From: a bacterium
GTDB taxonomy: Bacteria > Patescibacteriota > Minisyncoccia > Phycocordibacterales > CAIZLB01
Reading direction: 5' to 3'
Length of the DNA: 64,000 nucleotides
Assembly (NCBI GenBank): GCA_031411135.1
Contig: JANOAN010000009.1
Coordinates: 7,175 to 71,174, forward strand
Below are positions 1,568-63,205 of this stretch, piece by piece. The stretch's first letter is position 1. Each line of letters opens with the position of its first letter. The notes beneath the pieces are model-generated. The model made no database searches. It was not told the DNA's origin and saw nothing but the letters and a program-made list of their open reading frames with translations. The position numbers and the translations under genes were made by a program.

Positions 1568-1576
1568 GTTTGAGTA

Positions 1577-3101: not shown

Positions 3102-4817
3102 ATGACCCAAGAACAAGCACTGGATATCTTAAAAATGGGTTACAACGCCTACATAACCGGCCCTGCAGGAAGCGGTAAGACCTACGTCTTAAATAAGTAT
3201 ATTTCATACCTTAAAAATAAAAATGTTGAAATTGGTGTCACTGCTTCAACTGGTATTGCAGCAACTCATATAGGTGGAGTAACGATTCATTCGTGGACTG
3301 GGATGGGAATCAAAAGTGTTTTGACTGAATATGATATTGAAGCGCTTCAAGAAAAACAATATTTATGGAAGCGCTTCGAAAAAGTAAAAGTGTTGGTCAT
3401 CGACGAAATCTCTATGCTTCATCATTTTCGATTGGACTTGGTGGATAAAGTTTGTAAAGGTTTCAAGAGAAACAATAAGCCATTTGGTGGCATACAGGTA
3501 ATATTGTGTGGAGATTTTTTTCAGTTGCCACCAGTTTCAACCTCGTTTGATGAGGCAGGATATTTTGTCTACCACTCCGAATCATGGAAAAATAGTAACT
3601 TTAAAATTTGCTACCTTGAAGAACAACACCGTCAATTAGACAATGCAACCATTTCTATTTTAAATGAAATTCGAAATAACAATGTAAGCCAGAAAAGCTT
3701 TGAAATACTACAGAGTAAAATTGCATTACCACACACTGATGTAGACGGAGCTTTTTCACCAACCAGACTTTATACACATAATGTCGACGTAGACATGATT
3801 AATTATAAGGAATTAGAAAAGATAAAAACAGATGAAAAAACTTTTGAAATGATTTCAAGGGGAGGGGACTTGCTTGTGGACTTATTAAAAAAATCTTGTC
3901 TTGCACTTCCAAAAATAAAATTAAAAGTCGGAGCGAAAGTCATGTTTGTGAAAAATAATTTTGAAGTTGGATATGTAAACGGAACACTTGGAACCGTAAC
4001 CGCGATTGGCAAAAACGGGCCGGTTGTTCGGACTTATAAAGGCCAGATTATCGACGTTGAGCCAGCAAGTTGGAAAATTGAAGAGGATGGAAAGGTAAAA
4101 GCAGAAATCACTCAATACCCACTTCGTCTTGCTTGGGCCATCACAGTTCATAAAAGCCAAGGAATGAGCCTTGATTACGTCGAGGTGGACCTCTCAAAAT
4201 CATTTGAGAGGGGAATGGGGTATGTGGCACTTTCCAGAGTTCGCTCGATTGATGGGCTTCGAATTATTGGACTCAACGACACTGCATTAAAAGTAAGTGA
4301 CGAAGTCGTGGAATTCGACGAAGAACTTCGAGAAAAATCAGCTAACACTGTGAGGGGATTTATGGATCTTGAAAAATTAGAAGTTAAAAAACGCCAAACC
4401 GACTTTCTAAAAAACATTGGTGCAGAAAACACTGACCCTGATGATGTGGCAAAAAACACATCAACAAAAAAGACAAAGAAACCTGGCACGTTTGAACTCA
4501 CAAAAAATTTAATCTTAGAAGAACGTTCACTCGACGACATTTCGCATATTAGAAATTTAAAAGTAGAGACCATTCTAGAGCATTGTGAAAAAATTCTTAA
4601 GGAGGATCCTCTGTTTGATTTTTCAACATTATACAAGGCTGTGAGTATTAGAAAGCAAACTAGAATTATCGAAGCTTTCAAAAAAGCTCATAAAATTTCA
4701 GGAAAATTTAACCTAGAAAAGGCAACTTTGGCACCAGTAAAACATCTTTTAGATGGAACCTTCAGTTATGTAGAAATTCGAACAGTGCGGATGATGTTAT
4801 TTCAGGATATGATATAA
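3102..4817 (+). CDS. PIF1/RecD-family ATP-dependent 5'-3' DNA helicase
   Basis: Walker A GPAGSGKT, Walker B VLVIDEISM, and motifs typical of PIF1/AAA_30 helicases (QLPPV, the C-terminal region containing ITVHKSQG). C-terminal extension of about 120 aa. Confidence 0.75.
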   Translation: MTQEQALDILKMGYNAYITGPAGSGKTYVLNKYISYLKNKNVEIGVTASTGIAATHIGGVTIHSWTGMGIKSVLTEYDIEALQEKQYLWKRFEKVKVLVIDEISMLHHFRLDLVDKVCKGFKRNNKPFGGIQVILCGDFFQLPPVSTSFDEAGYFVYHSESWKNSNFKICYLEEQHRQLDNATISILNEIRNNNVSQKSFEILQSKIALPHTDVDGAFSPTRLYTHNVDVDMINYKELEKIKTDEKTFEMISRGGDLLVDLLKKSCLALPKIKLKVGAKVMFVKNNFEVGYVNGTLGTVTAIGKNGPVVRTYKGQIIDVEPASWKIEEDGKVKAEITQYPLRLAWAITVHKSQGMSLDYVEVDLSKSFERGMGYVALSRVRSIDGLRIIGLNDTALKVSDEVVEFDEELREKSANTVRGFMDLEKLEVKKRQTDFLKNIGAENTDPDDVAKNTSTKKTKKPGTFELTKNLILEERSLDDISHIRNLKVETILEHCEKILKEDPLFDFSTLYKAVSIRKQTRIIEAFKKAHKISGKFNLEKATLAPVKHLLDGTFSYVEIRTVRMMLFQDMI

Positions 4818-4864
4818 TTTAGTCGCGCTTCAATCGTCATTGCGCGATCTGATTTTGCAAAATC

Positions 4865-40711: not shown

Positions 40712-41444
40712 ATCGAATAGAATAAATTGGAACTAATGATTTGAAGAGAACGTAGGCGAAAGCGTCTCCCACAACAGAATCGACCTTGTTTACCGTACCT
40801 AGAAGAATATTCTGCATCGACGGCCAGATTACAGGATCACCAACGTTGATTTTTGATTCACTTGGGACCTTTATATAGAAGTTTCCTCCACCCCTACCTT
40901 CTGATGCAACGGCCTCTGAAGAGGTTCCCACATAAACTTCTTGGCGTTGACCTGAGGAAGAATACAGAGTAACAACTGATGTGCGAGGAAAGACCGCAGT
41001 AACATAGCCGATAAGGACGTCTGCGCTGGCAAAGACTAGGTCGTCTACTTGGATACCGTTATCTGTACCGCCGTTTACGACAATTGAATCATAGGGGGAA
41101 AACGGCGGCCTTTGTGCAACTGAAAAAAGACTTCCTTTTGGACGCTTTACATTCATTCCATCATTTGCATTTAAAAATTCTTTTAAACCTTCATTCTCTG
41201 ACTCGAGTGCAGTAATTTTAGCATTCAGATACTGAGGATCTTGATTTTCTTCGGTGTATTGTGGTTCTGACTTGTTAAAATTAAAAATATTTTTTACCCA
41301 CATAATTCCAGAAACTAAACTTTCTGAAAACAAGCTTCCTAGTACAATCAACAATATACCCATGATCACGCCGACAACTCGATCGCGACCTAAAAATTTC
41401 TTTTTTCGTCTATCGGTTTGGAGGTAGCTCATCTTCGTTGTCAA
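40683..41444 (-). CDS. mreC: Rod shape-determining protein MreC
   Basis: N-terminal TM helix, coiled coil and C-terminal β-domain. Confidence 0.7.
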   Translation of the reverse strand: MTTKMSYLQTDRRKKKFLGRDRVVGVIMGILLIVLGSLFSESLVSGIMWVKNIFNFNKSEPQYTEENQDPQYLNAKITALESENEGLKEFLNANDGMNVKRPKGSLFSVAQRPPFSPYDSIVVNGGTDNGIQVDDLVFASADVLIGYVTAVFPRTSVVTLYSSSGQRQEVYVGTSSEAVASEGRGGGNFYIKVPSESKINVGDPVIWPSMQNILLGTVNKVDSVVGDAFAYVLFKSLVPIYSIRYVEIVPSNF

Positions 41445-42486
41445 TTAATATATCACGATAAGTGTCTAAGTCCTCAAGTACAATACCCGCCCCTCGGGCC
41501 ACTGCCGTTAAAGGATCATTCGAAACATAAACAGGAATCCCTACATGCTCTGCTAAAACCTGAGCAATTCCCTTAATAAGGGCACCACCACCTGTTAGGT
41601 GAATTCCGTTATGCATGACGTCGGAGAGAATTTCAGGAGGAGTGGTTTCAATTACTTCTTTTACAGCATCAAGGAAAGTGTCAATTGATGCGCCGATTGC
41701 TTCGCGAATATCCGCGTCCGTTATAACCACTTCGCGGGGAAGTCCTGTCACCAAGTCGCGACCTCGAATAGCTGCTTCGAGGGGAGGGTTCATTGGAATA
41801 ACTGATGCAATAGCCATCTTGACGCTCTCGGCTGTTTTTTCACCGATTAAAATTTTAAATTCATTTCGGATGTATGAAATAATGTCAGTGTTGAATTTGT
41901 CGCCGGCAACTTTCAAATTTTTTGCTCGCACAATTCCACCAAGTGAAATTACAGCAATATCAGTTGTTCCACCACCAATATCAATAACCATACTTCCTGT
42001 CGCATCTTTTACTGGAAGTCTGATACCGATCGCTGCTGCCATTGGCTCTTCTATTATATGCACCTCTCGCGCGCCGGCATTTTTCGCAGCATCTCGGACG
42101 GCGCGCCTTTCAACATTCGTTACTCCGTACGGCACTCCAATAACAACTCGAGGACCTAACATTTTTTTAGACAAACCTTCGGCCTTTCTAATCAAATATG
42201 CGAGCATCTCCTCTGTGATTTCAAAGTCAGAGATGACGCCGTCAACCAATGGTCGAACCGCCACGATGTGTGCCGGCGTTCTACCCAACATCGCCTTAGC
42301 CTGCTCACCCACCGCTACCACACGCCCAGTCTTTTGGTTCACCGCCACCACAGATGGCTCGTTGATGACCACACCTCTTCCAGACACATAAACAAGGGTA
42401 TTTGCAGTACCCAAATCAATACCGATTTCATTAGATAGACTGCGATTTATGCGCTCGCGAAGCTTTTTAAACATTATGCTTACCAA
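41410..42486 (-). CDS. mreB: Rod shape-determining protein MreB
   Basis: IGIDLGTANTLVYV, DIGGGTTD and actin-fold motifs. Confidence 0.92.
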   Translation of the reverse strand: MVSIMFKKLRERINRSLSNEIGIDLGTANTLVYVSGRGVVINEPSVVAVNQKTGRVVAVGEQAKAMLGRTPAHIVAVRPLVDGVISDFEITEEMLAYLIRKAEGLSKKMLGPRVVIGVPYGVTNVERRAVRDAAKNAGAREVHIIEEPMAAAIGIRLPVKDATGSMVIDIGGGTTDIAVISLGGIVRAKNLKVAGDKFNTDIISYIRNEFKILIGEKTAESVKMAIASVIPMNPPLEAAIRGRDLVTGLPREVVITDADIREAIGASIDTFLDAVKEVIETTPPEILSDVMHNGIHLTGGGALIKGIAQVLAEHVGIPVYVSNDPLTAVARGAGIVLEDLDTYRDILIDNEDELPPNR

Positions 42487-47247: not shown

Positions 47248-48261
47248 CTACCTCTTCGCAATAATCGTCTTCTTATATGTATCCAAATGTTCCAGTGCAA
47301 TTCCAGTCCCTTTAGCAACACAGTATAAAGCATCTTCAGCAAGCATCGCCTTTACACCAGTTCTTCTAAAAACCAATTCAGGTAAATTTCTTAACATCGA
47401 CGAACCACCAGTCATCATGATTCCATTATCAATAATGTCCGACGCCAATTCAGGAGGAGTTTCTTGGAGCACATCTTTTACAGCCTTAATCATTTCACGT
47501 AATTCTTTTGCAATGGCTTTTACAATTTCATTTGTCTTTATTTCAACTGAACGTGGAAGTCCTGTTAAATAATCTCTGCCTTTCACTGACATCGAAAGTT
47601 CTTCTTCAACAGGAATTGCAGAACCAATATTTATTTTAATATCTTCGGACATTTTGTCACCAATTGCCAAGTTATAAGTTTTCTTTACATAATCAACAAT
47701 CGCGGCATCAATTCTGTTTCCTGCGCACTTTACCGAAGTACACGAAACGATTCCACCAAGCGAGATCACGGCTACGTCTGTAGTTCCTCCTCCAATATCA
47801 GCCACCATGTGTCCACGCGCTTCTTGAATAGAAATCCCTGCACCAATCGCAGCGAGAATAGGTTCTTTTACTACATACGCATTTTTAGCCCCCGCCTTGA
47901 TCGCCGCTTCAATCACGGCACGACGTTCAGTTGAAGTCACACCAGCTGGAACTGAAATTAAAATTTCAGGTTTTAAAATATTCCATTTACCCAAAGCTTT
48001 ATTAATATAGTATCGAAGCATGGCTTCAGTTACACGGTAGTCCGCGATCACACCATCCTTCATTGGGCGATAGGCAATAATAGTGTCAGGAGTTCTTCCA
48101 ATCATCTCTTTTGCATCAAGTCCAACCGCTAAAATTTTATTGTCCTGTTCAGAGATTGCGACAACAGAAGGTTCATTTAGTACAATTCCCTTTCCAGGAA
48201 GGAAAACAAGGGTGTTTGCTGTTCCTAAGTCTATTCCAAGCTTGCGAGAGAAAAATGCCAT
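47248..48261 (-). CDS. Second MreB/Mbl-like actin homologue
   Basis: LGIDLGTANTLVFL, DIGGGTTD. Paralogue of the mreB at 41410..42486. Confidence 0.88.
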   Translation of the reverse strand: MAFFSRKLGIDLGTANTLVFLPGKGIVLNEPSVVAISEQDNKILAVGLDAKEMIGRTPDTIIAYRPMKDGVIADYRVTEAMLRYYINKALGKWNILKPEILISVPAGVTSTERRAVIEAAIKAGAKNAYVVKEPILAAIGAGISIQEARGHMVADIGGGTTDVAVISLGGIVSCTSVKCAGNRIDAAIVDYVKKTYNLAIGDKMSEDIKINIGSAIPVEEELSMSVKGRDYLTGLPRSVEIKTNEIVKAIAKELREMIKAVKDVLQETPPELASDIIDNGIMMTGGSSMLRNLPELVFRRTGVKAMLAEDALYCVAKGTGIALEHLDTYKKTIIAKR

Positions 48262-48324: not shown

Positions 48325-48426
48325 TTGAAATCAAGTTTGTCGTATTGTATACTTTTAACACTTTGGTCTTTTACCGGAAGGTATCTGGCTCCGAGATTGC
48401 CACCCTGCAGGGTGGCTTTCGTTTTT
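48325..48426 (+). ncRNA. Candidate small RNA: sigma70-like promoter (TTGAAA-17-TATACT, 48325–48353) followed about 45 nt later by an intrinsic terminator (gccaccctgcagggtggc + T-run, 48399–48426)
   Basis: Promoter and terminator read directly from the sequence. No plus-strand ORF lies between them. Convergent with the 3' end of the MazF-like gene and abuts it. Confidence 0.4.
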
Positions 48427-48811
48427 ACAGATAGTCCCTAAGGCGGTCAAGTACTAGGCTATGTTCAAAATCATCAATAATCCGAATTTTACGATTAAGC
48501 CTTGAGCTATCCAAAAGCTTTATTTGACTAATGATGGCCGAGGTGCCAGTAGAACTTAGAGGAACATACCAGCTTCCTTCTTTTCTTTTAGAAGTAAGTG
48601 GGATAGCTAAAAAAGTCGTAGGAGAAACTTTTTTTAGGATCAGAACCGGCCTTTCAAAAAATTCATTCTTTCCATCCTGTTCACTGCCAATATTTGCACC
48701 AATTGAACAAAACCATATTTCTTTTTCTCTCCAGAAAATACCTGTGGGTCTTTCTGTTTTTTCGTGTATTTTTTTCTTGAGTTCAGTCCACCTATTGAAA
48801 TCTTTGTTCAT
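48425..48811 (-). CDS. MazF/PemK-family toxin-like protein (solitary)
   Basis: IWFCSIGANIGSEQDG...ERPVLILKKV...FLAIPLTSK matches the PemK/MazF core (G.E..g..RP.lVls...v..iPlTs). No protein antitoxin ORF upstream. Confidence 0.55.
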   Translation of the reverse strand: MNKDFNRWTELKKKIHEKTERPTGIFWREKEIWFCSIGANIGSEQDGKNEFFERPVLILKKVSPTTFLAIPLTSKRKEGSWYVPLSSTGTSAIISQIKLLDSSRLNRKIRIIDDFEHSLVLDRLRDYL

Positions 48812-48896
48812 ATTCTCTAGGATAAATAAATGGAAGCTAATATTTATTAATTTATTATTAAATTGAATTTATCCATAGTGATATACTAAATAAAAA

Positions 48897-49358
48897 ATGT
48901 CAGTGCATAAAAACTTCACCCACACTTCAGACTTCATAATATATACCCTCTTACTATTAAGTGTGTTCTTAGAATGGCTTTTTCCTACTGATCTTGGAAT
49001 AAACAGATTTGTCTCCGTGACATTAGGGGTATTTATGCTTTTAAGTTCATGGCTACTAATTTTTATTGCAAAATATCAGTTTAAAATGCACGGACAAAAA
49101 AGTGGACCAGGAAATCAAACGACCTCACTTATTCAGAGCGGACTTTTCAAATACAGTCGAAATCCAATTTATCTTGGAGTGATTTTTATCATTCCAGCTA
49201 TTGGATTAATTATAAGCAGTATATGGCTAATCTTAACAATCATTCCCTGCTTTTGTATGCTTAAAAAAATCTTGATTGAACCTGAGGAAAAGTATCTTTT
49301 GGGTAAGTTTAGTGGTGAATATGTAGATTATTGTAAGAAAGTTGGACGGTGGTTTTAA
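48897..49358 (+). CDS. Isoprenylcysteine carboxyl / phospholipid methyltransferase-family membrane protein
   Basis: FKYSRNPIYLGVIF ... EPEEKYLLGKFSGEYVDYCKKVGRWF (ICMT/PEMT C-terminal signature). Confidence 0.65.
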   Translation: MSVHKNFTHTSDFIIYTLLLLSVFLEWLFPTDLGINRFVSVTLGVFMLLSSWLLIFIAKYQFKMHGQKSGPGNQTTSLIQSGLFKYSRNPIYLGVIFIIPAIGLIISSIWLILTIIPCFCMLKKILIEPEEKYLLGKFSGEYVDYCKKVGRWF

Positions 49359-49398
49359 TTGGTATGCACAAATGCAAAAAAGCTGGTAATATCAAAAT

Positions 49399-50031
49399 AT
49401 GAAGCCCGAATCCCAACCAAAAATGGAAGCTGAGAAAAGTGGAAAATTTTTAGAATTGTATAAGCTGGAAAGAGCAGAAATGGAAAAACTTCAAGAAAGA
49501 ATCCGCGAAAGCGACGGATTTATAAGAGTTTTTATGCACGTACTCAGTTATATAGACCCCGCCAATTTGCAACACCCGAATGAAATGAAAACTCTTTTGG
49601 TTGCTGGAGGAGTAATGCGATCAGAAAATCAACAACCAATATTCCTTTTTGAAAATGAATTTAGAGTACAAGAAGTTATAAATCTTTTAAATCAGCAAGG
49701 GGGACTACTTAAAGATACTTACATTATTCCAACTTTAAATGGTTGGGGTTATCCTGTCATACCAAACAATTTAGAAAATAGAGATGCTAACGAATATAAG
49801 CAAAAAGCTGGAATATTCTTTGCAAAACTTTTGACAGATTTAGGAGTCACAAAAATTATGGCTGGTGGAAAAGAACTTGAGGTAAAAGATGAACAGCTTG
49901 AGAATTGTCTTGGAAACTTTATACGATTTATACAAAACTATAGTGAAATTGAAGTTAAGCTGTCATTAGGGTCATCTCCGCTTAATCGGAACTCTGAAGA
50001 AATAAGAGATGGTCACCCTGAATTGTTATAA
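49399..50031 (+). CDS. Hypothetical protein
   Basis: 210-aa soluble protein. No motif recognised. Confidence 0.35.
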   Translation: MKPESQPKMEAEKSGKFLELYKLERAEMEKLQERIRESDGFIRVFMHVLSYIDPANLQHPNEMKTLLVAGGVMRSENQQPIFLFENEFRVQEVINLLNQQGGLLKDTYIIPTLNGWGYPVIPNNLENRDANEYKQKAGIFFAKLLTDLGVTKIMAGGKELEVKDEQLENCLGNFIRFIQNYSEIEVKLSLGSSPLNRNSEEIRDGHPELL

Positions 50032-50075: not shown

Positions 50076-52043
50076 GTGTATATCGTCACAGTCTCTCCTA
50101 TCGCTCGCGGTGCCTTTACTGACCAACTAACTTATTGGTCAGCGCACTTTTTCAACCCCGGATCAATCATCTCAGTTCCCTTCCGAAGCAAAGAAATCAG
50201 CGCCTTGGTCCAGCGATGTGAATCAGCATCAGACGCAAAAATGGGAGTAAAGAATGCAAATTTTGAAGCGAGGAAAATCGAAGAGCACGCAAAAGAGATA
50301 AAATTAATAAGAAGCGAATCCGTCGAAGCAGCACGTTTCATCAGTGAATTTTATTGTCTACCCATTGGATCTGTCTTATCAGCATTTATTCCGAGTTGTG
50401 CTTTTAGTATAAAAGAAAGTTCAGTACAAGAAGAAAAAAAGCCAGATATAATAAAAATTGATACTAACGAGAGTGGTGTAAAAAGTAACCCTCCTGCTGC
50501 AATTATTGTATCTCGTGCTCCATCATCTGAAACCCTGACTGTCCAATCTGCCACCGAAGATCGGGCAAAAACTTACAAAAGTATTATCAGAGAAGAATTT
50601 GCTCGCAGGAAATCAGTCTTGGTAATTGCCCCTCGCATCATTGATGCTGAAAATATTTTTGAACAATTAACAAAAGGTATTGAAGGATCGGGGGTCATAA
50701 TTCACAGCGGAATGTCTAAAAAGAAAATTGAAGAAGAGTGGCAAAGGGCAAAAAGTGCCAATCATTCAATCATTTATGTTTCGACCCCGGGTTTCTCTAT
50801 GATTCCCCGAGACGACATTAGTGTCATCATAATAGAGCAAGAAGCTTCAAGAATGTATTTTGCTGGATGGTCTCCGATAATTGATTGGAGAATGGCTATT
50901 GAAAAGTACGGATCTCTCATCGGCGCTCGGGTGGTTTTAGGAGACACATTACTTCGAATTGAAACTCTAGAAAGGCGAGATAATGGCTTAATAAGCGATA
51001 TTTCCCAAGCGGTTTTTCGCGTTGAAAAAGCTCCGCAAACAATTATTGTAGACATGAACGATAAGGAGCACAAAATCAAAGACGGCTTTAAATTAATTAG
51101 TGAGGAACTATGGTCAATGATCGGTTACGCTAAAAAGAAGAACGAACGCATGGTAATTTTTTGTTCAAGACGTGGCCTCTCACCACAAACCCTATGTGGT
51201 GACTGTGGAAAAACAGTCATGTGTACACGGTGCAGTTCCCCCGTCGTTTTGCACCAGCCAAAATCTGGTGACAGATTTTTCCTTTGTCACCATTGCGGAG
51301 AAAAACGCTCTGCTCTAGAGGCTTGCAAGAATTGTGGAGGGTGGAAGTTAACTACCCTCGGAATTGGTATAGATACGATTGGCACACTAGTTGAAAAAAA
51401 ATATCCTGATTCAAAAATCTTCAAAATCGATAAAGATGCAATTAAAAAAGAATCCGATGGCAAGAAGATAATAAAGGATTTTCTAAAAAACGATCATGCC
51501 ATACTTTTGATTACTGAAACCGGATTGCCATTCATACCCACTGTTCCATATATCGCAATCGCCTCATTTGATTCCCTATTCTCAATTCCTGATTTTAGAA
51601 TTAGCGAGAGGATTGTTCACAACCTAATAGATCTAGCAGAAAAAACTGAGAAGTACTTCTTGATTCAATCTCGAAATGCAGAGTCACCACTTTTAAAAAC
51701 TGTTGCGGGTGGCGGACTGATGGAATTTTTCCGAATGGAATTAGAAGCTCGCGAAAAAATGGAATATCCACCATTTATGACTTTTATAAAATTGACTATT
51801 TCTGCACCAAAAGCCACAGCGATGGAAATTCTGGAAGACTTACAGGAAAAACTCCAAGAATGGTCACCGATTATCTTCCCTGCCTTCACTGCCACTGTAA
51901 AAAATGAAGTGGTTATGAATATTTTATTGAAAATCGAGAACGATTACTGGAAAGATGTTGAAAAGAGCAAGTCACTCCGTCAAATTATCCTATCCCTATC
52001 GAGAGAGATCACCGTTCAGATAAATCCAGAAAGTATGTTATAA
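50076..52043 (+). CDS. priA: Primosomal protein N' (PriA) homologue with degenerate Walker A/B motifs
   Basis: PriA Cys-cluster CGDCG..C.RC......H.......CHHCG..R.....CKNCG aligns with E. coli PriA. Helicase motif I reads SRAPSSETLTV instead of GVTGSGKTEVY. Motif II reads IIIEQEAS instead of VVDEEHD. Synteny priA-def-fmt is retained. Confidence 0.75.
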   Translation: MYIVTVSPIARGAFTDQLTYWSAHFFNPGSIISVPFRSKEISALVQRCESASDAKMGVKNANFEARKIEEHAKEIKLIRSESVEAARFISEFYCLPIGSVLSAFIPSCAFSIKESSVQEEKKPDIIKIDTNESGVKSNPPAAIIVSRAPSSETLTVQSATEDRAKTYKSIIREEFARRKSVLVIAPRIIDAENIFEQLTKGIEGSGVIIHSGMSKKKIEEEWQRAKSANHSIIYVSTPGFSMIPRDDISVIIIEQEASRMYFAGWSPIIDWRMAIEKYGSLIGARVVLGDTLLRIETLERRDNGLISDISQAVFRVEKAPQTIIVDMNDKEHKIKDGFKLISEELWSMIGYAKKKNERMVIFCSRRGLSPQTLCGDCGKTVMCTRCSSPVVLHQPKSGDRFFLCHHCGEKRSALEACKNCGGWKLTTLGIGIDTIGTLVEKKYPDSKIFKIDKDAIKKESDGKKIIKDFLKNDHAILLITETGLPFIPTVPYIAIASFDSLFSIPDFRISERIVHNLIDLAEKTEKYFLIQSRNAESPLLKTVAGGGLMEFFRMELEAREKMEYPPFMTFIKLTISAPKATAMEILEDLQEKLQEWSPIIFPAFTATVKNEVVMNILLKIENDYWKDVEKSKSLRQIILSLSREITVQINPESML

Positions 52044-52622
52044 ATGTCGTATATGGCAACTAAAAAAATACCCCCATCCCCAATTGAAATTGTTCAACAG
52101 GATAACCCCGTATTGCGTAAAAAAGCCCAAGCAGTGCCTTTAGATGAAATACCAACACCTAAAATCCAGAAAATCATAGCAGATATGATCAAGGCATTAG
52201 ACTCGCAAGATGACGGAGTGGGTATTGCTGCGCCTCAAATTGGCCATTCATTGGCTATTTTTGCAATCTCTGGCAAGGCACTCGAAAGAATTAATCAAGC
52301 CAAAGATGGTGACGAAGCTCCCAAAAAAACTTACAAAAATCTAGTATTTATAAATCCAAGAATTATTAAACTTTCAAAAGAAAAAAAGTGGATGGACGAA
52401 GGTTGTCTATCTGTTAGATGGCTTTATGGAAAAGTAGAGCGATCAATTCGCGCTACAGTATCTGCATATGATGAGAATGGAAAAAGTTTTGAGAGAGGTG
52501 GAGGTGGAGTTTTAGCTCATATTTATCAGCACGAAGTCGACCATTTAAACGGAACACTATTTATCGACAAAGCAGTGGATTTAGAAGAAATGGAACCTGA
52601 GGAAAACGAAAATGCAAAATAA
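52044..52622 (+). CDS. def: Peptide deformylase
   Basis: GVGIAAPQIG, EGCLS, QHEVDHLNG. Confidence 0.9.
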   Translation: MSYMATKKIPPSPIEIVQQDNPVLRKKAQAVPLDEIPTPKIQKIIADMIKALDSQDDGVGIAAPQIGHSLAIFAISGKALERINQAKDGDEAPKKTYKNLVFINPRIIKLSKEKKWMDEGCLSVRWLYGKVERSIRATVSAYDENGKSFERGGGGVLAHIYQHEVDHLNGTLFIDKAVDLEEMEPEENENAK

Positions 52623-53466
52623 GATTATTTTTTTCGGAACTTCAATATTTTCAGTAGAGGTTTTAGAGCAATTAAAAGTACAAGGATTAGTTCCTGATGT
52701 AATTGTTACAACAACGGACAAACCCCAAGGAAGAAAACTCGTCATGACTCCTCCACCGGCTAAAATTTGGGCAACGGAAAATAATGTTCAGGTATTTCAA
52801 TTTGAAAAGTTAAAAGATGAGGCAGTTGAAACATTAAAGTCTTTAAACGCAGACTTATTTATTGTAGCTTCATATGGAAAAATTATTCCTCAGGCGGTTT
52901 TGGATATACCACCGAAGGGAGCCTTGAATATTCACCCTTCTCTCCTGCCGGAATATCGTGGGCCTTCCCCGCTTCAAACTTGCATTTTAGATGACTGTAA
53001 AAATATTGGAGTGACGATTATAAAAATGGACGCGGAAATGGATCATGGGCCAATTGTTTACATGAAGCCATTTGAAATTCCAAATTGGCCAGTGAATGTT
53101 CTGGAACTTAAGAAAATTTTAGCAATTAAAGCAGCAGATATGCTTATTAGAATTTTACCTGCGTGGCTTGTTGGGACCGCTTTAATTATCGAGCAAGCTC
53201 ATGACCAGGCAACCTTCACAAAAAAGATTGTAAAAGCAGATGGTGAAATTGATTTGAGCGGAGATCAGTGGAAAAACTACTTAAAAACACAGGCATTTTT
53301 TGGCTGGCCAGGAACTTTCTTTTTTACTGAAAGGCATGGAAGGAAAATCAGAGTGAAGATAAATAGCGCTTCTTTTGATAAAGAAAATAATAAATTAGTT
53401 ATCGAGAGAGTCACCCCAGAAGGAGGAAAGGAAATGAGGTACGATGATTTCTTAAGGGGAATTTAG
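52612..53466 (+). CDS. fmt: Methionyl-tRNA formyltransferase
   Basis: IIFFGTS N-terminus and NIHPSLLPEYRGPSPLQ formyltransferase motif. Confidence 0.88.
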   Translation: MQNKIIFFGTSIFSVEVLEQLKVQGLVPDVIVTTTDKPQGRKLVMTPPPAKIWATENNVQVFQFEKLKDEAVETLKSLNADLFIVASYGKIIPQAVLDIPPKGALNIHPSLLPEYRGPSPLQTCILDDCKNIGVTIIKMDAEMDHGPIVYMKPFEIPNWPVNVLELKKILAIKAADMLIRILPAWLVGTALIIEQAHDQATFTKKIVKADGEIDLSGDQWKNYLKTQAFFGWPGTFFFTERHGRKIRVKINSASFDKENNKLVIERVTPEGGKEMRYDDFLRGI

Positions 53467-54279: not shown

Positions 54280-54351
54280 TCCCCTGTAGCTCAGCGGTAG
54301 AGCAATCGACTGTTAATCGATTGGTCGTAGGTTCGATCCCTACCGGGGGAG
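54280..54351 (+). tRNA. tRNA-Asn (anticodon GUU)
   Basis: 72-nt cloverleaf: acceptor TCCCCTG/CGGGGGA, D-arm GCTC-AGCGGTA-GAGC, anticodon arm ATCGA-CTGTTAA-TCGAT, T-arm GTAGG-TTCGATC-CCTAC, discriminator G. Confidence 0.85.
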
Positions 54352-55899
54352 CATAGAAGTGATTTTAGCCTCAGAATAAGCTTTTGCGTTGTCAGCAAAG
54401 GCTTTTTTGAGTTCGAAATTGTTTTCGAAGCTAAGCACTCGGTCACGGTACTTTCGAACTGGCGTTTTTAGCTCGTACTTCACTGAACCGTCTTTAATGA
54501 TGATTTCACTGAATAGATTTTGCAGAAGCAGTCTTTTGTCACCTGATGATTTTCGTTTGTTGTAGATGCTCTTAGCCCTCTGAGCAAGGTCAAGAATGTC
54601 GATATATGTCTCAAAGTATTCAGCTTCCTGATTTTTGAGTTTCTCTAGCTCAGCTTGGATTTTCTTTTGGTCAGCGATAGCTGTATCGTTCTTGGTTCGC
54701 CACATCTCAGTAGAAATATCACCTGAGAGCTTATCATCGTACATACGGTCTATTTTGACCTGTAGAGAGGTGTATTGAGCGTTCAGTGTCGATATGACAC
54801 TTAGCTTGTACTCAGCTTCTTTCTTGTGATTTTCTTTTATACGCCTCTGTATCTCTTTTGCTTCTTCAGCCGTAATGCTTTCGAATACGCTCATCACATC
54901 AATTAACCTTTTTTCAACACGGTCTTCTCGAACACCACCTTTTTGAGTACAGACTTTGTTGTGTTTACACGCACAATACACTCTGCCTTTTTGCACTTCA
55001 GACGAAATTGTACCCTTACACTCACCACATTTAATCATCTTAGAAAAGATATATTCGTGCCTTTGATAGAAAGGTGCTTTTCCACGAGTTCGCACTTCCT
55101 GAATGATGTCGTAAGTCTCCTTGATAATCAGGGGTTTATGAGTACCCTCACGCAATTCACCTTTCCAAAGGAAGCAACCATAATTGAAAGGGTCTTTAAG
55201 AAACTTCTCAATCTGACTTTTGTATAACCTCTTATCGAACCGAGAGCGAAGACCCACCTCCCACGCTTTTTCTTTAATCGCTTTCATCGAGTAATTACCA
55301 CTCGCATACATCTCAAGCATTTTTCTCGCTTGGTTAAATGTCTTGTCATTTGGTACGAACTCTTTTTTACCTTTCTCACCAACTGATAGATAACCAAGCT
55401 TAAATGAGCCTGGGTATTTACCCTGTGAAGCTTTTTCAGTCTGACCCTTTCGTACTTCTTCAGAAAGGTTATTTGTGTAGAAGCGAGAAATGGCAACTTT
55501 CATATCCCACACAAGGTTTTCGTGTGCTCGTGTATTTCTGCTTACAATAAAGTTTTCTTTGACAAAATGCACCTCGTTTTCACCACTCATTATCCATTCG
55601 CTTATTACCGAGGCGTCTTTGAGATTTCGTGTAAGACGGTCAATTTTCTCAGAGAGAATAAGTTTGATTTTATTCTTTTTTACATAATCAAGCATCTCAT
55701 AAAATACCTTACGGATTTGCTTGCCACTTGCTGACTCAGATATTCTGAATATCTTTACAACATCAATCTGATTTTTATCTGCGTACTGCTCAAGTAAGTG
55801 TTGCTGAGCATCTAGAGAATAGCCAGTATCTTCTTGTTCTTTCGAAGATACACGGCAATATAGAACACATTTTTGACTAAAGTTAGTTGAACTTTTCAT
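54340..55899 (-). mobile_element. Large serine recombinase (integrase). Its last 4 codons overlap the 3' end of tRNA-Asn.
   Basis: N-terminal resolvase domain with catalytic Ser (YCRVSSKEQ), recombinase domain, zinc ribbon C..C...C..C, and coiled-coil C-terminus. 519 aa. Confidence 0.85.
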
Positions 55900-56215
55900 A
55901 GCTTTATTTTATCACTTAATTGCTTATAAATTAACTGCCGAGCTACAACCGAGGTTTACCTTTTTGAATAGGTAACCTTGATATAGCTTCTATGTAGTCA
56001 GAAATGAGATACACGACTACGAGACCCTTTCTGAGAAGACTAGTCATTGGTACTGACTGGAAGTTCATCTTACTCATCTTTTTATCTCTAATCCATATCT
56101 GGAGACCCTACGACACAAATCAGACAGCTCGGTGGCAACCTCGGATAGCCATTTTCCAAGCTTTCGCATTTGTGCCTTAGAAGTCCCTTAATTATTTTCA
56201 CGAAAACTGTCGTCC

Positions 56216-56476
56216 TTAATTTTCGTGTTTCGTAAGAGCATCTTTTTCTTCTCTGCTCTTAAAAGAAGTTTCTTCTGACATTGTAGGCTGTGGCTCACAA
56301 GAGCCTGAAATAGGTTCTCCACTGGTCATTGGAGAACCTATTTCAACCACCTGTGATGTCGCTCGATGCTTTTTAGCATCTTCAAAATCAAAACGAGCTA
56401 ACAAGTCAAAAAACGTGACGATTTCGTCACTTACTTGTACGGCTTCTTTTGTTTTCTGATAACCAGTTAACGACAT
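56216..56476 (-). CDS. Hypothetical small protein (island cargo)
   Basis: 86-aa ORF. Confidence 0.3.
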   Translation of the reverse strand: MSLTGYQKTKEAVQVSDEIVTFFDLLARFDFEDAKKHRATSQVVEIGSPMTSGEPISGSCEPQPTMSEETSFKSREEKDALTKHEN

Positions 56477-56548
56477 AAAGTGTCGTCCGTGGGTGAACCC
56501 TTGGACTACTTTATTGTTGCGTTATTTGGTCTTTAAGTATTCACTGAA

Positions 56549-57367
56549 CTAGCTCAGGTATACCGAAAAAGGTAGTTTCTTTTTCCACTTTGTATAATCT
56601 GCTTTTTTCAGAATGTAACCCTCTAAGGTTTTAAGAGATTTCATATTTTTATTGTGGCTGTGGATAAGCAAAAACCGCACGAGCCATAATTTTGTTAGCT
56701 TCTTATCTTCACCAGTTCTCTTATAAAACTTCTGATATTCTTGCGGATTGATTGTCTGACAAATATTTTTTAGCTGTTCAATACTATACTCAAAGTAGAT
56801 TTCATTTGTGAGCCATTTGTCATCTTTTAAGCCCTCGCTCTGCAACCCCAATTGAGGTATGAAATGCGGTAGATTTCTTTTTTCAGCAATAATCTTTTTT
56901 ATTGAGTACTGAGGTAGAGACAAAAAATCTTTAACCGCCTCGGTCTCAATGCCAGGTGATATTTTGAGATAAATGCAATTATCATTTTCTCCTTGATTAT
57001 GGTCTATCCACTCGATACCACTAAGATTTGAAAGTTTAATCATTTCATCAGTGACACAATCACAAAAGAAAAGTTCAGCCATAAAGTATTTTAACTGAGG
57101 TGTGTTAAGACGATATGCCACCTGAAAATTATCAAGCGTCACTTGTTTCCAAAAACGATAAAAAGCCTTTTTAATACCACCATTCAAGAGTATCTTGAAA
57201 TGCTTTATCCTCTCTGGGAGAGAGCACTCAAGCAAGTAGAAAGTGTCGCCTATATGAAGCTCTTTCCTTATTTTTTGAGCCAGTTTCTTGGTCTTATCAT
57301 TATGGATTTTCTGATAAACGACAAGATTTTTTCTATATAGCTTTTGCTGTAATGGTGACCAGTCCAT
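56549..57367 (-). CDS. Hypothetical protein (island cargo)
   Basis: 272-aa ORF. No motif recognised. Confidence 0.4.
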   Translation of the reverse strand: MDWSPLQQKLYRKNLVVYQKIHNDKTKKLAQKIRKELHIGDTFYLLECSLPERIKHFKILLNGGIKKAFYRFWKQVTLDNFQVAYRLNTPQLKYFMAELFFCDCVTDEMIKLSNLSGIEWIDHNQGENDNCIYLKISPGIETEAVKDFLSLPQYSIKKIIAEKRNLPHFIPQLGLQSEGLKDDKWLTNEIYFEYSIEQLKNICQTINPQEYQKFYKRTGEDKKLTKLWLVRFLLIHSHNKNMKSLKTLEGYILKKADYTKWKKKLPFSVYLS

Positions 57368-57573
57368 AGCACCATTTTAGCAGTTTTAGAGCTTCTAAGC
57401 ACTCAATTATCACTCTGGAAAAAGCCAAGAAAAAGAGAGGCTATTTGTGCAACAAAAGCCAATACCAAAATACTAACTACCAATGCTACTAAGCACGATG
57501 ATACAAAACCAATTATCTCAACAAGATTGAAAAATGCAGATACTATTTTATGTGCTATTGCTTCCATATATCT

Positions 57574-58482
57574 TTACCAAAACTTTAGCTTCCTGAAAAA
57601 CCCAAATACTTTTTGTACGAAGCTTTGCTCGGGTTGTTTTATTTCCTGTTGAAGCGATGAAGTTGTTGTGCTTGTGGCTAGTGTTTTCTCAATCTTTTCA
57701 GTCTCAAATAACTTTGTTTTCTCCTCAGTTTTCTTGGGTATAGTTTTCTGCAATGGAGCTATCTTTGTTGTGATAGTTGGTGTAATTTCTGGAGTTTTTA
57801 CTTCCTCATTTTGTGTAAAAAACTCAGGGTGATACAAGCGATACAGCTCAACGATTTTCAAATAGTTGGCTGGATTGGAGACTTTGAGCAAGTTTATTTT
57901 TGCTGACCATTCATCAGCAGGTAGGGTCTCTAGCCACTCGTACAAATCGCCAATAGTAGCTTGTTTTTGTGGTGCAGTATCTGTTTGATATTTCTGTATG
58001 ACAGTATCTCTTTGCTTGTCATAATACTCATCAATTTCTTTCATCTGCTTCTGTATTTCTTCTATCTGTCTATCTACATCAGCTTGATTATTGACTTGCT
58101 GTTGGTATTGAGATTTTTGAGCCTCAAGAGCACTGATTTGGCTTGAGTATTTGTTATCAATTTTAGTGAACACCTCAGAAGCACCACCCCAAGTTGAGAG
58201 CGTGCCATTCTGAGCTAGCGTACCTGTCGTGTATGTCTTTTCAGTTTCCCATTCCTGACGAAGCTCGGCTATCCTTTGGTCAATGACACTTATGGAAATT
58301 GTAGGACTATTTTGAAGCTGTGACTCTAAGCTCTTAAGGCGATACTCAAGAGCTGATTTTTCCTCTTGCTGTTTGATGTACACATCATTAGGCAAGTAGT
58401 TGTAACTTGTTGCGTATGCAGTAGAAAACACGCTGAAAAAGGCGAATAGAGCCACTGCAAAGGCATATTTATATGTAGGCAT
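57574..58482 (-). CDS. Secreted coiled-coil protein (island cargo)
   Basis: Signal peptide MPTYKYAFAVALFAFFSVFSTAYA, then Gln/Glu-rich coiled coil. Confidence 0.45.
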   Translation of the reverse strand: MPTYKYAFAVALFAFFSVFSTAYATSYNYLPNDVYIKQQEEKSALEYRLKSLESQLQNSPTISISVIDQRIAELRQEWETEKTYTTGTLAQNGTLSTWGGASEVFTKIDNKYSSQISALEAQKSQYQQQVNNQADVDRQIEEIQKQMKEIDEYYDKQRDTVIQKYQTDTAPQKQATIGDLYEWLETLPADEWSAKINLLKVSNPANYLKIVELYRLYHPEFFTQNEEVKTPEITPTITTKIAPLQKTIPKKTEEKTKLFETEKIEKTLATSTTTSSLQQEIKQPEQSFVQKVFGFFRKLKFW

Positions 58483-58741
58483 AGTTGAACACTTCTATAC
58501 CCCAAAACTGGTTTAGCCAAACTGCACTATTAAAAATGGAGAGATTGCAGAAAGGGACAGCCGAGGTGTTCAACTACAACGGGAACCCCAAAGGAGTCCA
58601 ATCATAGAACTCGGACTGCCCCTTTCTGCCTACGATTGGACAGAAAAGGCAAAAAGCCCTCACTCTATGGGTAAAAATCCCTATGTAGTTGAACAAGTAA
58701 AATATAGCACAAAAATAAGCTGAAATTAAGCCCTATTTGCT

Positions 58742-59122
58742 TTAGCTTTTGGAAAGTTCATTTACTCTCTCGATTGACTCTCTCAGCTCATCAGACATTT
58801 CAGGCGAGCGTGACCGATTACGCACTGAGGGACAGCCAAACTCGTGTGGTAGTTTCTTTGATAAATATCGCAAAGCAAAGTGTGCATCTTTCTCTAAGTA
58901 CTCACAAATAGTCTTCCGTGCCTCAAAAATTGGCTTGCTTTTCCACCCTTGTTTTAGCTGTAAAAACTCAGGGTTCTTTTTTTGATAGTTGTAGAGGGTC
59001 TTTTCTGAAATATCTGCGAAAAGACAAGCTTCTGAGTCAGTACAGTCCATATGAAAAGCGGTTTTAAGTTCAGTTAAAACCTTGTCAGTTATTACAGTTG
59101 GTCTTCCTCCTCTTTTTGACAT
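58742..59122 (-). CDS. HTH DNA-binding protein (terminase-small-subunit-like or transposase-like N-terminus)
   Basis: MSKRGGRPTVITDKVL N-terminus is characteristic of phage small terminase / transposase HTH proteins. Confidence 0.4.
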   Translation of the reverse strand: MSKRGGRPTVITDKVLTELKTAFHMDCTDSEACLFADISEKTLYNYQKKNPEFLQLKQGWKSKPIFEARKTICEYLEKDAHFALRYLSKKLPHEFGCPSVRNRSRSPEMSDELRESIERVNELSKS

Positions 59123-59210
59123 ATTGGGAGCTTTTATGTGTTGCCTACACAGGGAGGTGCTTGATAAGGTAATTATATCAAAAAATGGCTGGAAATGTTA
59201 GAATGTTTTT

Positions 59211-59621: not shown

Positions 59622-60119
59622 ATGATTTCCTTACGTTTTATCCCTATTTTTGAAGACAAGGAGTTTACTGATGCTGTAGCTGAGTACAAGCAGATTTGGG
59701 AAGCTGAGGGTGTCAGAATTATTGATGCTTTCAAACAGATAACAGGACTCTCTTTTGTTGAAAATCGGATAGCTATTGTTATATACGAGGGCGTGAGTTT
59801 TTCAGGACGTACCCCAAACGATATGATGAAATTGCGTGCAAGCTATACGGCTGATGTTAAAAAGGCAACACTCGTACACGAATTATCTCATCGCTTGCTT
59901 TTTAATCTCAAAAATAGACCTGAGGGTGATGAACACCAAGTCATTAACTTATTTCTTTATGATGTGTGGGTAGAGTTGTATGGCGAGGACTTTGCAAATG
60001 AAATGGTAGAAATTGAAAAAAAGCGAGCTGAAAATTATCAAATTGCTTGGGATTTTGCACTTTCACTTACGAAAGAGCAAAGAAAAGAAAAGTTTTCAGC
60101 CCTGCAAAAAAGCTTATAA
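59622..60119 (+). CDS. Hypothetical protein with an HExxH motif (VHELSHRL)
   Basis: 165-aa ORF, 3 nt downstream of the Nudix gene. Confidence 0.35.
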   Translation: MISLRFIPIFEDKEFTDAVAEYKQIWEAEGVRIIDAFKQITGLSFVENRIAIVIYEGVSFSGRTPNDMMKLRASYTADVKKATLVHELSHRLLFNLKNRPEGDEHQVINLFLYDVWVELYGEDFANEMVEIEKKRAENYQIAWDFALSLTKEQRKEKFSALQKSL

Positions 60120-60121
60120 AT

Positions 60122-61240
60122 ATGACAAATAATCAAGATGAAAACTCAATAAAAATTGTAGAGGCAATTCCTGAAGATGCAAAAGGGATTACTACTGTTT
60201 TGTATAAAACTTGGCTTGATACCTATCCCAATGAGGAAATAGGTATCACGAAAGAAGATGTTGAGGATAGCTACAAAGACGCTTTTACAGAGGAAAAAAT
60301 AAAAAGTCAGCAAGAAAGAATAGCGACCACTCCTGAAAATCAAAGACGATTGGTCGCTAAAAATGGCACTGATGTTATTGGTATTGCCACAATGATACGT
60401 AATAATGATAACAATCAGCTAAGGACGATATATGTGCTTCCTGAGTATCAGGGTAAGGGTGTAGGCTCAATGCTATGGAATGAAATAAAAAAGTTTTGTG
60501 ACCACTCTAAAGACACGATTGTTCAAGTAGCCACCTACAATAAAAGTGCTATCTCTTTCTATGAAAAGCTGGGTTTTGTTGATACTGGAAAGAGGTGGTC
60601 TGATGAAAAATGGAAAATGAGAAGTGGTGCAACTATCCCCGAAATGGAGATGATGATAATAGCAAAAAACCAAAAAGATTGGTCTGAATACTACGAAATA
60701 ACAAAGGCTAAGCCACCCACAAAACTTCTTGTAAAAGCTCTTGAATATGTCACTGATAAAGGCAAAGCTATTGATATTGGAGCTGGTGCGTTGAAAGACA
60801 CACGATACCTGCTTGAACAGGGTTTTGAGGTCACTGCGATTGATAAAAGCCCTTTAATGGAGCAGGGAGTCAAAACACTAGAAAATGATAAGGTTCAGGC
60901 TTTTACGACCTCATTTGAAGATTTTGATTTTTCTGAAAATAAGTATGATATTGCCTCTGCAATGTTTTCTCTGCCATTCACTGAGCCAGCACATTTTGAG
61001 ACAGTCTTTATCAAGATAAAAAACTCACTCAAGAAAGGTGGTGTGTTCTGCGGTCAATTCTTTGGAATGAATGATGAATGGTCAAAAAATCCTAAGATGA
61101 CTTTTCATACTGAAGCTCAAGTAAAAGAATTGCTCAATGGTCTTGAGGTGCTTTCTTTTAAGGAGGTTGAGGAAGATAGTACTACGGCAAACGGCACACC
61201 AAAGCATTGGCATATTTTCCATATAATCGCAAAGAAATAA
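60122..61240 (+). CDS. GNAT N-acetyltransferase fused to a class-I SAM-dependent methyltransferase
   Basis: N-terminal half has RTIYVLPEYQGKGVGSMLW...ISFYEKLGF (GNAT motifs A/B). C-terminal half has AIDIGAGALKD (MTase motif I) and a D/E acidic loop. Start set at MTNNQDEN. Confidence 0.6.
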   Translation: MTNNQDENSIKIVEAIPEDAKGITTVLYKTWLDTYPNEEIGITKEDVEDSYKDAFTEEKIKSQQERIATTPENQRRLVAKNGTDVIGIATMIRNNDNNQLRTIYVLPEYQGKGVGSMLWNEIKKFCDHSKDTIVQVATYNKSAISFYEKLGFVDTGKRWSDEKWKMRSGATIPEMEMMIIAKNQKDWSEYYEITKAKPPTKLLVKALEYVTDKGKAIDIGAGALKDTRYLLEQGFEVTAIDKSPLMEQGVKTLENDKVQAFTTSFEDFDFSENKYDIASAMFSLPFTEPAHFETVFIKIKNSLKKGGVFCGQFFGMNDEWSKNPKMTFHTEAQVKELLNGLEVLSFKEVEEDSTTANGTPKHWHIFHIIAKK

Positions 61241-62374: not shown

Positions 62375-62477
62375 AAATTAGACGGTAAGCAAAGACCTAA
62401 CATCTCGTAAAGTGCTTGTAATATAAGGGTATTCTTTGAGCCAATCTATAGTTAGAAAGTCGTCCTGTAAAGCGAGC

Positions 62478-62580
62478 ATTGTAGACAAACCTCTTTTACT
62501 GTTGTAATATCCCAGCAGTTCTTTAAACCTCTGGCTGTATCTTTTAGGGCATTTAGGTGTCTTGAAAGATGCAGCCACAA
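62478..62580 (+). repeat. ~100-bp promoter/leader module, copy 1 (tagaca-17-taatat then a 10-bp stem hairpin)
   Basis: About 93% identical to 63069..63168. Lies about 40 nt upstream of an ATG at 62622. Confidence 0.65.
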
Positions 62581-62621
62581 CTCTAAACTTAGGCTGTTGC
62601 CACATACAAAACCACTGTCTT

Positions 62622-62945
62622 ATGAAAAAAATTGACACTAAAACTGTTTCCACAATTCTAAGAAAGGCACAGAAAGGCCCTCGAATGACTGGTGGAAAAA
62701 GATGGTCAGAAGGACGCCTGAAAGTTATCTCGAAAGAAAACCCAGCAATAGCGACATTTCTGAATGAATTTCATTTTTCAGGTTCGAGATTCCACAGGAT
62801 GTCGGGAATCGAATCTGCGGTAATACTCTACGAAATCTTCAGGGTGTCCAGCAGGAAAACTTCGTCGACGAAGAAGAAACCTGAGCCTGAAATCGTCTAC
62901 GGCCCCGCTGGTCGCGACCGCATCAGAAGACGGCCTCAATTATAA
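62622..62945 (+). CDS. Hypothetical basic protein
   Basis: Internal Met of ORF 62562..62945 chosen because it sits downstream of the conserved leader. The overlapping minus-strand ORF 62378..62653 is a less likely alternative. Confidence 0.3.
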   Translation: MKKIDTKTVSTILRKAQKGPRMTGGKRWSEGRLKVISKENPAIATFLNEFHFSGSRFHRMSGIESAVILYEIFRVSSRKTSSTKKKPEPEIVYGPAGRDRIRRRPQL

Positions 62946-63068
62946 CGCCCGCCGACAACTCATACTGAGCCTGTCGCAGCGGGCTTTTGTATTTTTATAC
63001 CCAGGAAGAAAACTTCCTACCCCTCCATCAAGCAGGTTCGAGCATCCTCCCACCTTTGGTGCCTTGTA

Positions 63069-63168: not shown

Positions 63169-63205
63169 ACTAGTATCACTCACTTAAAATAAACCAGGAG
63201 ATACA

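Follow-up and report, generated by a model that had tools for sequence, protein, structure and literature searches.

We describe a priA gene in a 64,000-nucleotide stretch of bacterial DNA (the window; contig JANOAN010000009.1 of assembly GCA_031411135.1, positions 7,175 to 71,174 of the forward strand, lineage Minisyncoccia of the Patescibacteriota). Its 655-aa product, window PriA, keeps the fold of the replication-restart helicase PriA together with residues for DNA and zinc binding, and has lost the motifs for binding and hydrolyzing ATP. The gene probably encodes a PriA pseudohelicase that would recognize abandoned forks and recruit the replicative helicase without unwinding DNA. That it binds forks, recruits DnaB and takes part in restart we infer from the total loss of the nucleotide site, the retention of fork, pore and zinc residues, and strong purifying selection. 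An earlier note on this DNA had proposed that a PriA unable to hydrolyze ATP could act only as a structural or loader factor, or would rely on another helicase. With the ATPase motifs gone, the DNA-contact and zinc residues kept, and a precedent in Deinococcus radiodurans, a structural or loader role is the reading that best accounts for the data.

Loss of the ATPase motifs from a PriA homologue

The 655-aa protein is a PriA homologue by hidden Markov model, profile-profile and fold matches. The Pfam model PriA_3primeBD (PF17764) matches aa 27-106 with 35.5 bits against a cutoff of 22.7 (E = 9.2e-9) and Tyr20 is invariant, in agreement with the earlier claim that the protein aligns to PriA across its 3'-DNA-binding N-terminus. 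Matches to the NCBIfam priA and PRK05580 models reach an E-value of 9e-65. The score against the NCBIfam model TIGR00595 (priA), 206.6 bits, is under the equivalog cutoff of 230.35; every score against the PRK05580 and PRK14873 sub-models is far under its own cutoff, and Pfam Zn_ribbon_PriA scores 16.2, under its cutoff of 26. HMMER matched the protein to Klebsiella pneumoniae PriA (4nl4) at E = 1.5e-32 and to structures of Escherichia coli PriA at a similar E-value, and hhalign aligned it with Escherichia coli PriA at a probability of 99.94% (E = 1.1e-36), the alignment reaching aa 623 of the query and aa 698 of E. coli PriA (profile column 626). The GTG start codon is backed by the aligned N-termini of 59 homologues and is shared by the closest relative, locus L002. 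PADLOC returned no defense-system match for window PriA. A look-up of its exact sequence, with Val or Met as the first residue, retrieved no record.

The AlphaFold2 model of window PriA has a predicted local distance difference test score (pLDDT) of 84.1 and a predicted template modeling score of 0.85. The top nine PDB matches of this model in Foldseek were all PriA chains, with E-values from 4e-37 to 3e-26 and template modeling scores (TM-scores) of 0.67-0.75; the next family, Mfd, followed at E = 7e-10, 27 orders of magnitude weaker. The best E-value was obtained with the fork- and PriB-bound chain 8fak_H and the best TM-score (0.75/0.77) with the apo chain 6dcr_A, an engineered E. coli PriA lacking the winged-helix domain; as regards placement of the Cys-rich region (CRR), this is a comparison of match scores alone. 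The PriA fold of the RecA-like domains is thus kept in the predicted structure, with the P-loop reduced to a 2-residue turn.

The correspondences for motifs I and II agree across three independent alignments, made with HMMER, MAFFT and hhalign (Table 1). The catalytic K230 of E. coli PriA is replaced by R163, and the P-loop glycines by Q, T and D. In the model a helix begins at T160 and only the short turn is left of the phosphate-binding loop. The earlier note was right that the Walker A lysine is replaced, but the segment that it took for motif I, SRAPSSETLTV (aa 146-156), is the β-strand preceding the P-loop and lies about 8 residues too far towards the N-terminus. Its assignment of EQEA as the counterpart of DEEH is supported by all three alignments. 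The claim of inactivated motifs was sound for motifs I and II but understated the degeneration: motif III, part of motif V, the arginine fingers of motif VI and the winged-helix domain are gone as well. In motif V, GTQ has become ITE and KGHH is absent. The arginine-finger segment GRAGK (E. coli G586-K590) of motif VI is deleted in all 118 homologues described below, which have K, L or I in place of R584. No GxxxxGK[ST] or DExH/D motif occurs anywhere in the 655-aa protein, so the claim does not fall to a canonical motif elsewhere in it. Nor does the GKT at aa 378-380 qualify as a cryptic Walker A: it lies within the first zinc knuckle, has no upstream glycine, and its lysine is not conserved. 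In E. coli PriA the K230R substitution abolishes ATPase and helicase activity (PMC4504706, PMC5778457). Window PriA cannot be a canonical ATPase; we infer the loss of ATPase activity from the loss of its motifs.

The altered motifs are a family trait. Conservation was assessed in 118 full-length homologues, reaching down to 35% identity, and again in 422 distinct sequences of full length. The Walker lysine position is Arg in 118/118 homologues and in 421 of the 422 distinct relatives, none of which has a P-loop. The position of G224 is Gln in 112/118, and that of G229 is Asp or Glu in 117/118. Motif II has the family consensus E-[KR]-E-S-S-R; its second Glu is kept in all 118 homologues, while the position of His323 is occupied by Ser, Asn or Ala. 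E256 is found in 413/422 relatives and D290 in 408/422. The E. coli K230D variant, unlike K230R or K230A, may have an extra defect in ColE1 plasmid replication (PMC5778457). Together with the fixation of Lys to Arg in both natural lineages, this family and the Deinococcus-Thermus PriA proteins, the behavior of K230D suggests that a positive charge at the Walker lysine position has a structural role.

The family is widespread. In a GTDB scan with one genome per species, at least 487 species representatives encode a relative of window PriA, and a canonical P-loop was present in none of the best 80 loci, which were examined individually. Among 1.84 billion representatives at 50% identity, 11,676 PriA-like proteins were detected, 2,244 of them at E ≤ 1e-30; the best 150 of the 11,676, all scoring at least 357 bits, lack a canonical Walker A. 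We searched with window PriA, with P0252 (the member of the family that comes closest to E. coli PriA) and exhaustively through the representatives; no canonical PriA from a sister lineage of the candidate phyla radiation (CPR) was found among the matches listed, which are all in-family down to 357 bits. The named sources are Paceibacterota, Pacebacteria, Taylorbacteria, Campbellbacteria, Parcubacteria, Minisyncoccia and 'Patescibacteria group', and the proteins are about 620-660 aa long. The degeneration is therefore lineage-wide, and what the earlier note had called an unusual replication-restart configuration is the usual state of a very large Paceibacteria/Parcubacteria family, with a published precedent.

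Against the L002 orthologue, which is 94% identical, the ratio of nonsynonymous to synonymous substitution rates (dN/dS) is 0.035 at a dS of about 0.94. By region, it is 0.052 for the inactive lobe 1 and 0.005 for lobe 2 with the CRR. We propose that loss of the motor was ancestral to the large Paceibacteria (Parcubacteria/Minisyncoccia) family and that the motorless form is held by purifying selection. A sequencing or assembly error, which the earlier note had raised as a caveat, or a decaying pseudogene has a negligible probability as an explanation, and no observation was found that supports either. The same motif state recurs in hundreds of independently assembled genomes and is under purifying selection, which argues against both error and decay; the 655-codon frame is uninterrupted, dN/dS is low and the structural model is confident.

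Some records of the family carry names or labels that need comment. At least eight public records (P0041, P0057, P0308, P0318, P0345, P0348, P0351, P0362, P0364) call family members 'hypothetical protein', which agrees with a score that falls short of the equivalog cutoff of NCBIfam priA. We considered the label 'uncultured Candidatus Saccharibacteria' as a sign of spread to Saccharimonadia and rejected it: the many third-party annotation metagenome-assembled genome (MAG) loci that bear it (among L006-L081) are as close to the query as the Paceibacterota and Taylorbacteria ones, and these labels look generic and uninformative. Locus L079 (CAYOBW010000540.1, 2,954 bp) places a family PriA in a MAG labeled 'uncultured Victivallales' and is probably a binning contaminant.

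Retained residues and a proposed role in replication restart

Residue roles were taken from the assignments for E. coli PriA (PMC5778457, PMC13594977), and conservation was counted in the 118 homologues. Y18 of E. coli PriA stacks on the 3' end (PMC13594977). The equivalent Tyr20 is present in 118/118, and position 66 is Arg or Lys in every homologue. The winged-helix region of E. coli PriA aligns to gaps in both MAFFT and hhalign, and the core of the linker that replaces it (aa 115-147) has a pLDDT below 50. In lobe 1, the aromatic-rich loop following motif II is remodeled into a family signature, P267-x-x-D270-x-R272, in which a tyrosine (Y261) and an arginine (R272) are kept. Motif IV is intact: R365 and G367 (E. 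coli G429) occur in all 118 homologues and R366 in 115. Their E. coli counterparts R427 and R428 bind the lagging-strand single-stranded DNA (ssDNA) in the PriA pore (PMC13594977). The YPPF of the C-terminal domain aligns with LPPW of E. coli PriA.

The intact zinc-binding cysteine cluster claimed earlier was borne out by four CxxC motifs, beginning at aa 374, 383, 404 and 417, whose eight cysteines are invariant in 118/118. The residues around the CRR differ in a way that separates the two states described for the E. coli protein. There, a contact between H455 and D513 stabilizes the partner-docking 'CRR-up' state, and H437, H599 and H600 stabilize the autoinhibited 'CRR-down' state (PMC13594977). 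In the family, H393 (E. coli H455) is conserved in 117/118, D454 (E. coli D513) is Asp or Glu in 118/118, and the position of E. coli E492 is Glu or Asp in 113/118. At the CRR-down positions, H437 is replaced by Gly, Asn or Ala, H599 by an invariant Arg, and H600 by Asn, Ser or Asp; window PriA itself has G, R and N.

Motorless PriA proteins with restart-related activities are known. PriA of D. radiodurans has no ATPase or helicase activity, binds ssDNA and forks nearly normally, and binds DnaB directly (PMC4504706). The K230R protein encoded by E. coli priA300 still assembles primosomes (PMC5778457), and restart by the PriA/PriB pathway continues in E. coli with a PriA that is ATPase-dead (PMC5778457, PMC13594977). 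Window PriA may work in a comparable way. Having kept the PriA fold but presumably no longer able to bind or hydrolyze nucleotides, or to unwind DNA, it would capture the nascent leading-strand 3' end at an abandoned fork or D-loop through its 3' DNA-binding domain. The RecA-like lobes, both inert, would form a DNA-binding scaffold with the C-terminal domain, in which the motif IV arginines would hold the single-stranded lagging-strand template. The two-zinc CRR would serve as the docking platform that brings in DnaB, directly or via a loader. Because window PriA would unwind nothing, only forks with an already single-stranded lagging-strand template could be restarted, unless other helicases or nucleases clear it.

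Several points weigh against this proposal. The family is known from sequences and a predicted structure alone, and the map of retained and lost interface residues draws only on Enterobacterial (E. coli) structures. Within lobe 1, the former motif positions hold no significant excess of invariant residues (2 of 10 invariants, against 18 of 181 positions; p = 0.26), and we therefore make no claim that the former ATP site has acquired a new role. The 80 related loci hold no conserved unknown partner gene beside priA. None of dnaB, DciA/DnaC, priB, dnaT, dnaD or ssb was detected among the open reading frames (ORFs) of the 64-kb window, and a second, canonical priA may lie elsewhere in the genome. 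To our knowledge, neither PriB nor DnaT is expected in the Patescibacteria phylum.

The motor function may have passed to another protein, with PriA marking the fork and a Pif1-like superfamily 1B (SF1B) helicase encoded in the window, or another helicase such as RecG or UvrD/PcrA, clearing the nascent lagging strand. This would extend the pseudohelicase proposal, and we regard it as unlikely. The earlier note had pointed to a PIF1/RecD-like helicase, and the gene is indeed a real, clade-conserved member of the Pif1 family. The protein has intact Walker A and Walker B motifs, and homologues at 52-57% identity to it occur throughout Paceibacteria, making it more conserved than PriA. Across 120 matches, identity slides smoothly from 92% to about 52%; the helicase gene seems to belong to the vertically inherited core of Paceibacteria. 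The 5'-3' polarity of Pif1 could in principle peel the nascent lagging strand from its 5' end. The Pif1-like gene and a family priA also co-occur on a 256-kb contig, JBAQFI010000012.1 (L083). The suggested connection with PriA lacks positional support, however: the two genes share no operon or neighbors, lying 47 kb apart in the window and about 145 kb apart on that contig, so that nothing but co-occurrence joins them. Pif1-like helicases are, moreover, common in bacteria that have a canonical PriA. The ORFs flanking the Pif1-like gene in the window (206-5347) have no Pfam or PADLOC match.

Still less probable is that the PriA fold and zinc module were repurposed outside restart, as a DNA-structure-binding protein in recombination, origin-independent initiation or chromosome maintenance. 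Such a change would fit the loss of the winged-helix domain and all motor motifs, the scores under the NCBIfam priA equivalog cutoff, and the strong conservation of family-specific replacements (Q157, R163, E256, D290, P267-x-x-D270-x-R272 and R533). On the other side, the residues that define restart in E. coli are retained, namely the 3'-end pocket tyrosine, the pore arginines and the CRR, and we saw no other PriA-like gene to which that role could have fallen. The order of priA with def and fmt, which is also that of the canonical priA of Bacillus subtilis, likewise speaks for the original role. That window PriA is still an ATPase, using a non-canonical site with, for example, Arg163 in place of lysine, we consider very improbable, even though a positive charge occupies the Walker lysine position in 421/422 relatives and the acidic second Glu of motif II is kept. 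K230R alone kills the ATPase of E. coli PriA, and D. radiodurans PriA, with the same Lys-to-Arg change, has no measurable ATPase. The acidic residues that replace the glycine-rich loop would repel phosphate, the modeled loop has 2 residues, and the protein is left with neither the catalytic Asp/Glu pair nor motif III nor the arginine fingers of motif VI. We therefore favor the pseudohelicase that recognizes forks and loads the replicative helicase.

The priA locus and other features of the window

The coordinates of the features discussed here are collected in Table 1.

Table 1. Domains and motifs of window PriA, the adjoining genes and the Pif1-like helicase gene, in window positions.
Feature	Position	Strand	Description
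priA	50076..52043	+	putative 655-aa PriA pseudohelicase; GTG start, stop codon 52041-52043, frame uninterrupted
3' DNA-binding domain	50076..50405	+	aa 1-110; Tyr20 = E. coli Y18, R66 = K61
Variable linker	50406..50525	+	aa 111-150, where E. coli PriA has its winged-helix domain (~aa 110-198); core predicted disordered
RecA-like lobe 1	50526..51065	+	aa 151-330, without ATP-binding motifs
Former Walker A	50544..50576	+	QSATEDRAKTY (aa 157-167) vs E. coli 224-GVTGSGKTEVY-234
Former motif II	50835..50846	+	EQEA (aa 254-257) vs E. coli 320-DEEH-323
Former motif III	50940..50951	+	GDTL (aa 289-292) vs GSAT
RecA-like lobe 2 with inserted Cys-rich region	51066..51710	+	aa 331-545; motif V shortened, motif VI deleted
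Motif IV, RRGLSP	51168..51185	+	aa 365-370; R365/R366 = E. coli R427/R428
Cys-rich region (CRR)	51195..51335	+	aa 374-420; CGDC, CTRC, CHHC, CKNC; two predicted Zn sites
C-terminal domain	51711..52040	+	aa 546-655, including conserved YPPF (564-567)
def, peptide deformylase	52044..52622	+	Pfam Pep_deformylase E = 2.7e-43; begins 1 nt after the priA stop codon
fmt, methionyl-tRNA formyltransferase	52612..53466	+	Pfam Formyl_trans_N E = 2.9e-31
Pif1-family SF1B helicase	3102..4817	+	C-terminal HTH_40 domain, intact GPAGSGKT Walker A

The priA-def-fmt synteny noted earlier is real, both def and fmt being confirmed by Pfam. In the 80 related loci, def lies directly 3' of priA in 66 and fmt is present in 64-66. 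The longer order mreB ... priA-def-fmt-hpf is kept in 58-66 of the 80, and several of the other loci are on contigs too short for the flanks. The only frequent additional neighbor of priA in these loci is MurA, often fused to a helix-turn-helix (HTH) domain. This fusion is unusual: at about 500 aa, it combines an N-terminal XRE-type HTH_3 with a full MurA of the EPSP_synthase fold. It is the commonest gene immediately upstream of the family priA (L072, L084 and about 34-44 of L002-L081).

The window encodes two MreB paralogues, 5 kb apart. One (41410-42486) adjoins mreC, and the other (47248-48261) is the copy conserved upstream of priA, in 58-59 of the 80 related loci. Between this mreB and priA (48425-50031) lie a MazF/PemK-like toxin gene (48425-48811, reverse strand), a gene for a PEMT/ICMT-like membrane methyltransferase (48897-49358, forward strand) and a 210-aa ORF of unknown function (49399-50031, forward strand). 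These three genes are absent from 78-80 of the 80 related loci, the methyltransferase and the 210-aa ORF even from L002, whose PriA is the 94%-identical orthologue. The interval is a recent, strain-specific insertion.

Downstream of the priA-def-fmt-hpf block, tRNA-Asn (54280-54352, forward strand) overlaps by about 12 nt with the 3' end of an ORF for a large serine recombinase (54340-55899, reverse strand) that has Resolvase, Recombinase and Zn_ribbon_recom domains. ORFs with no Pfam match follow at 56.2-59.1 kb. The region 54280-59200, directly downstream of the block, looks like a mobile element integrated at tRNA-Asn; a search for an att direct repeat of this serine-recombinase island at tRNA-Asn found none.

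Elsewhere in the window, a gene for a Gp49/HigB-like toxin (31588-31950, reverse strand) and an HTH_3 antitoxin-like gene (31299-31595, reverse strand) lie within the cell-division/cell-wall (dcw) cluster, between a penicillin-binding protein transpeptidase gene and the region upstream of mraW. A 442-aa RCC1-repeat protein (28083-29411) is encoded next to tRNA-Glu, and a 397-aa protein (60047-61240) fuses a GNAT acetyltransferase to a class I methyltransferase. Near the end of the window, the region 62476-63969 contains direct repeats: a 106-nt repeat in two copies that are 93% identical and 585 nt apart, and a 24-nt one, GAGCATCCTCCCACCTTTGG(T/A)GCC, in three copies; its short ORFs have no Pfam match.

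Significance and comparison with known PriA proteins

No account of a PriA pseudohelicase in Patescibacteria, CPR or Parcubacteria was found in a full-text literature search of a limited collection, and the family is apparently an unreported, very large lineage of a known kind of PriA pseudohelicase. A bolder version of the proposal, which we hold only tentatively and think doubtful as a whole, is that the motor was lost in an ancestor of a very large share of Patescibacteria/CPR; the descendants could number thousands of species and make up as much as about one fifth of detectable PriA clusters. The former ATP site would then be a conserved charge network (R163, E256, D290), and the protein a minimal, constitutively open adaptor, free of the winged-helix domain, which would load DnaB by itself and need no partner of the PriB/DnaT or DnaD type. 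The idea of a constitutively open adaptor comes from the loss of the CRR-down residues together with the invariance of the CRR-up interface and the pore arginines. If this ancestral loss is true, helicase-independent restart would be the rule in a major bacterial radiation.

A second, much larger lineage that has the Lys-to-Arg change and has also shed the winged-helix domain and the arginine fingers would also mean that PriA can repeatedly dispense with its motor but not with the 3'-end pocket, the pore arginines or the zinc module. The family could serve as a natural minimal PriA for mapping the surfaces needed in helicase loading without PriB/DnaT or DnaD/DnaB/DnaI, and it bears on how the small-genome, probably symbiotic CPR bacteria manage without fork remodeling. 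For annotation, the consequence is that family members fall under the NCBIfam priA cutoff and are in some cases named only as hypothetical.

The closest known parallel is the PriA pseudohelicase of Deinococcus-Thermus described by Lopper, Boone & Morrow in 2015 (PMC4504706). Both groups have, lineage-wide, a Walker A lysine changed to arginine and a degenerate Walker B. Both can be read as motorless factors that bind forks and recruit DnaB, a reading that for the Paceibacteria family is a prediction. Unlike the Deinococcus-Thermus proteins, the Paceibacteria family also lacks the winged-helix domain and the arginine fingers and is compact (about 620-660 aa). We assume, from taxonomic distance only, that the two losses were independent.

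Compared with the PriA proteins of E. coli and K. pneumoniae, which are SF2 DExH 3'-5' helicases (4NL4, 6DGD, 8FAK), window PriA shares the overall fold (TM-scores of 0.71-0.75), with the 3' DNA-binding domain, two lobes, two-zinc CRR and C-terminal domain. It also shares the RRG of motif IV, a DFRxxER element and the (L/Y)PP(W/F) motif, as well as the residues for 3'-end stacking, for ssDNA binding in the pore and for the CRR-up state. In contrast to these helicases, it has no Walker A, DEEH, motif III, arginine fingers or winged-helix domain, and it differs from E. coli PriA at the three CRR-down histidines, a comparison confined to Enterobacterial proteins. Two E. coli variants each reproduce one of these losses. 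The protein of priA300, a laboratory construct with its other motifs intact, carries this Lys-to-Arg change; it has neither ATPase nor helicase activity but can assemble primosomes and support PriA/PriB restart. The engineered protein of 6DCR lacks the winged-helix domain, likewise with its other motifs intact. Window PriA unites the two losses in a natural protein and has lost further motifs besides.

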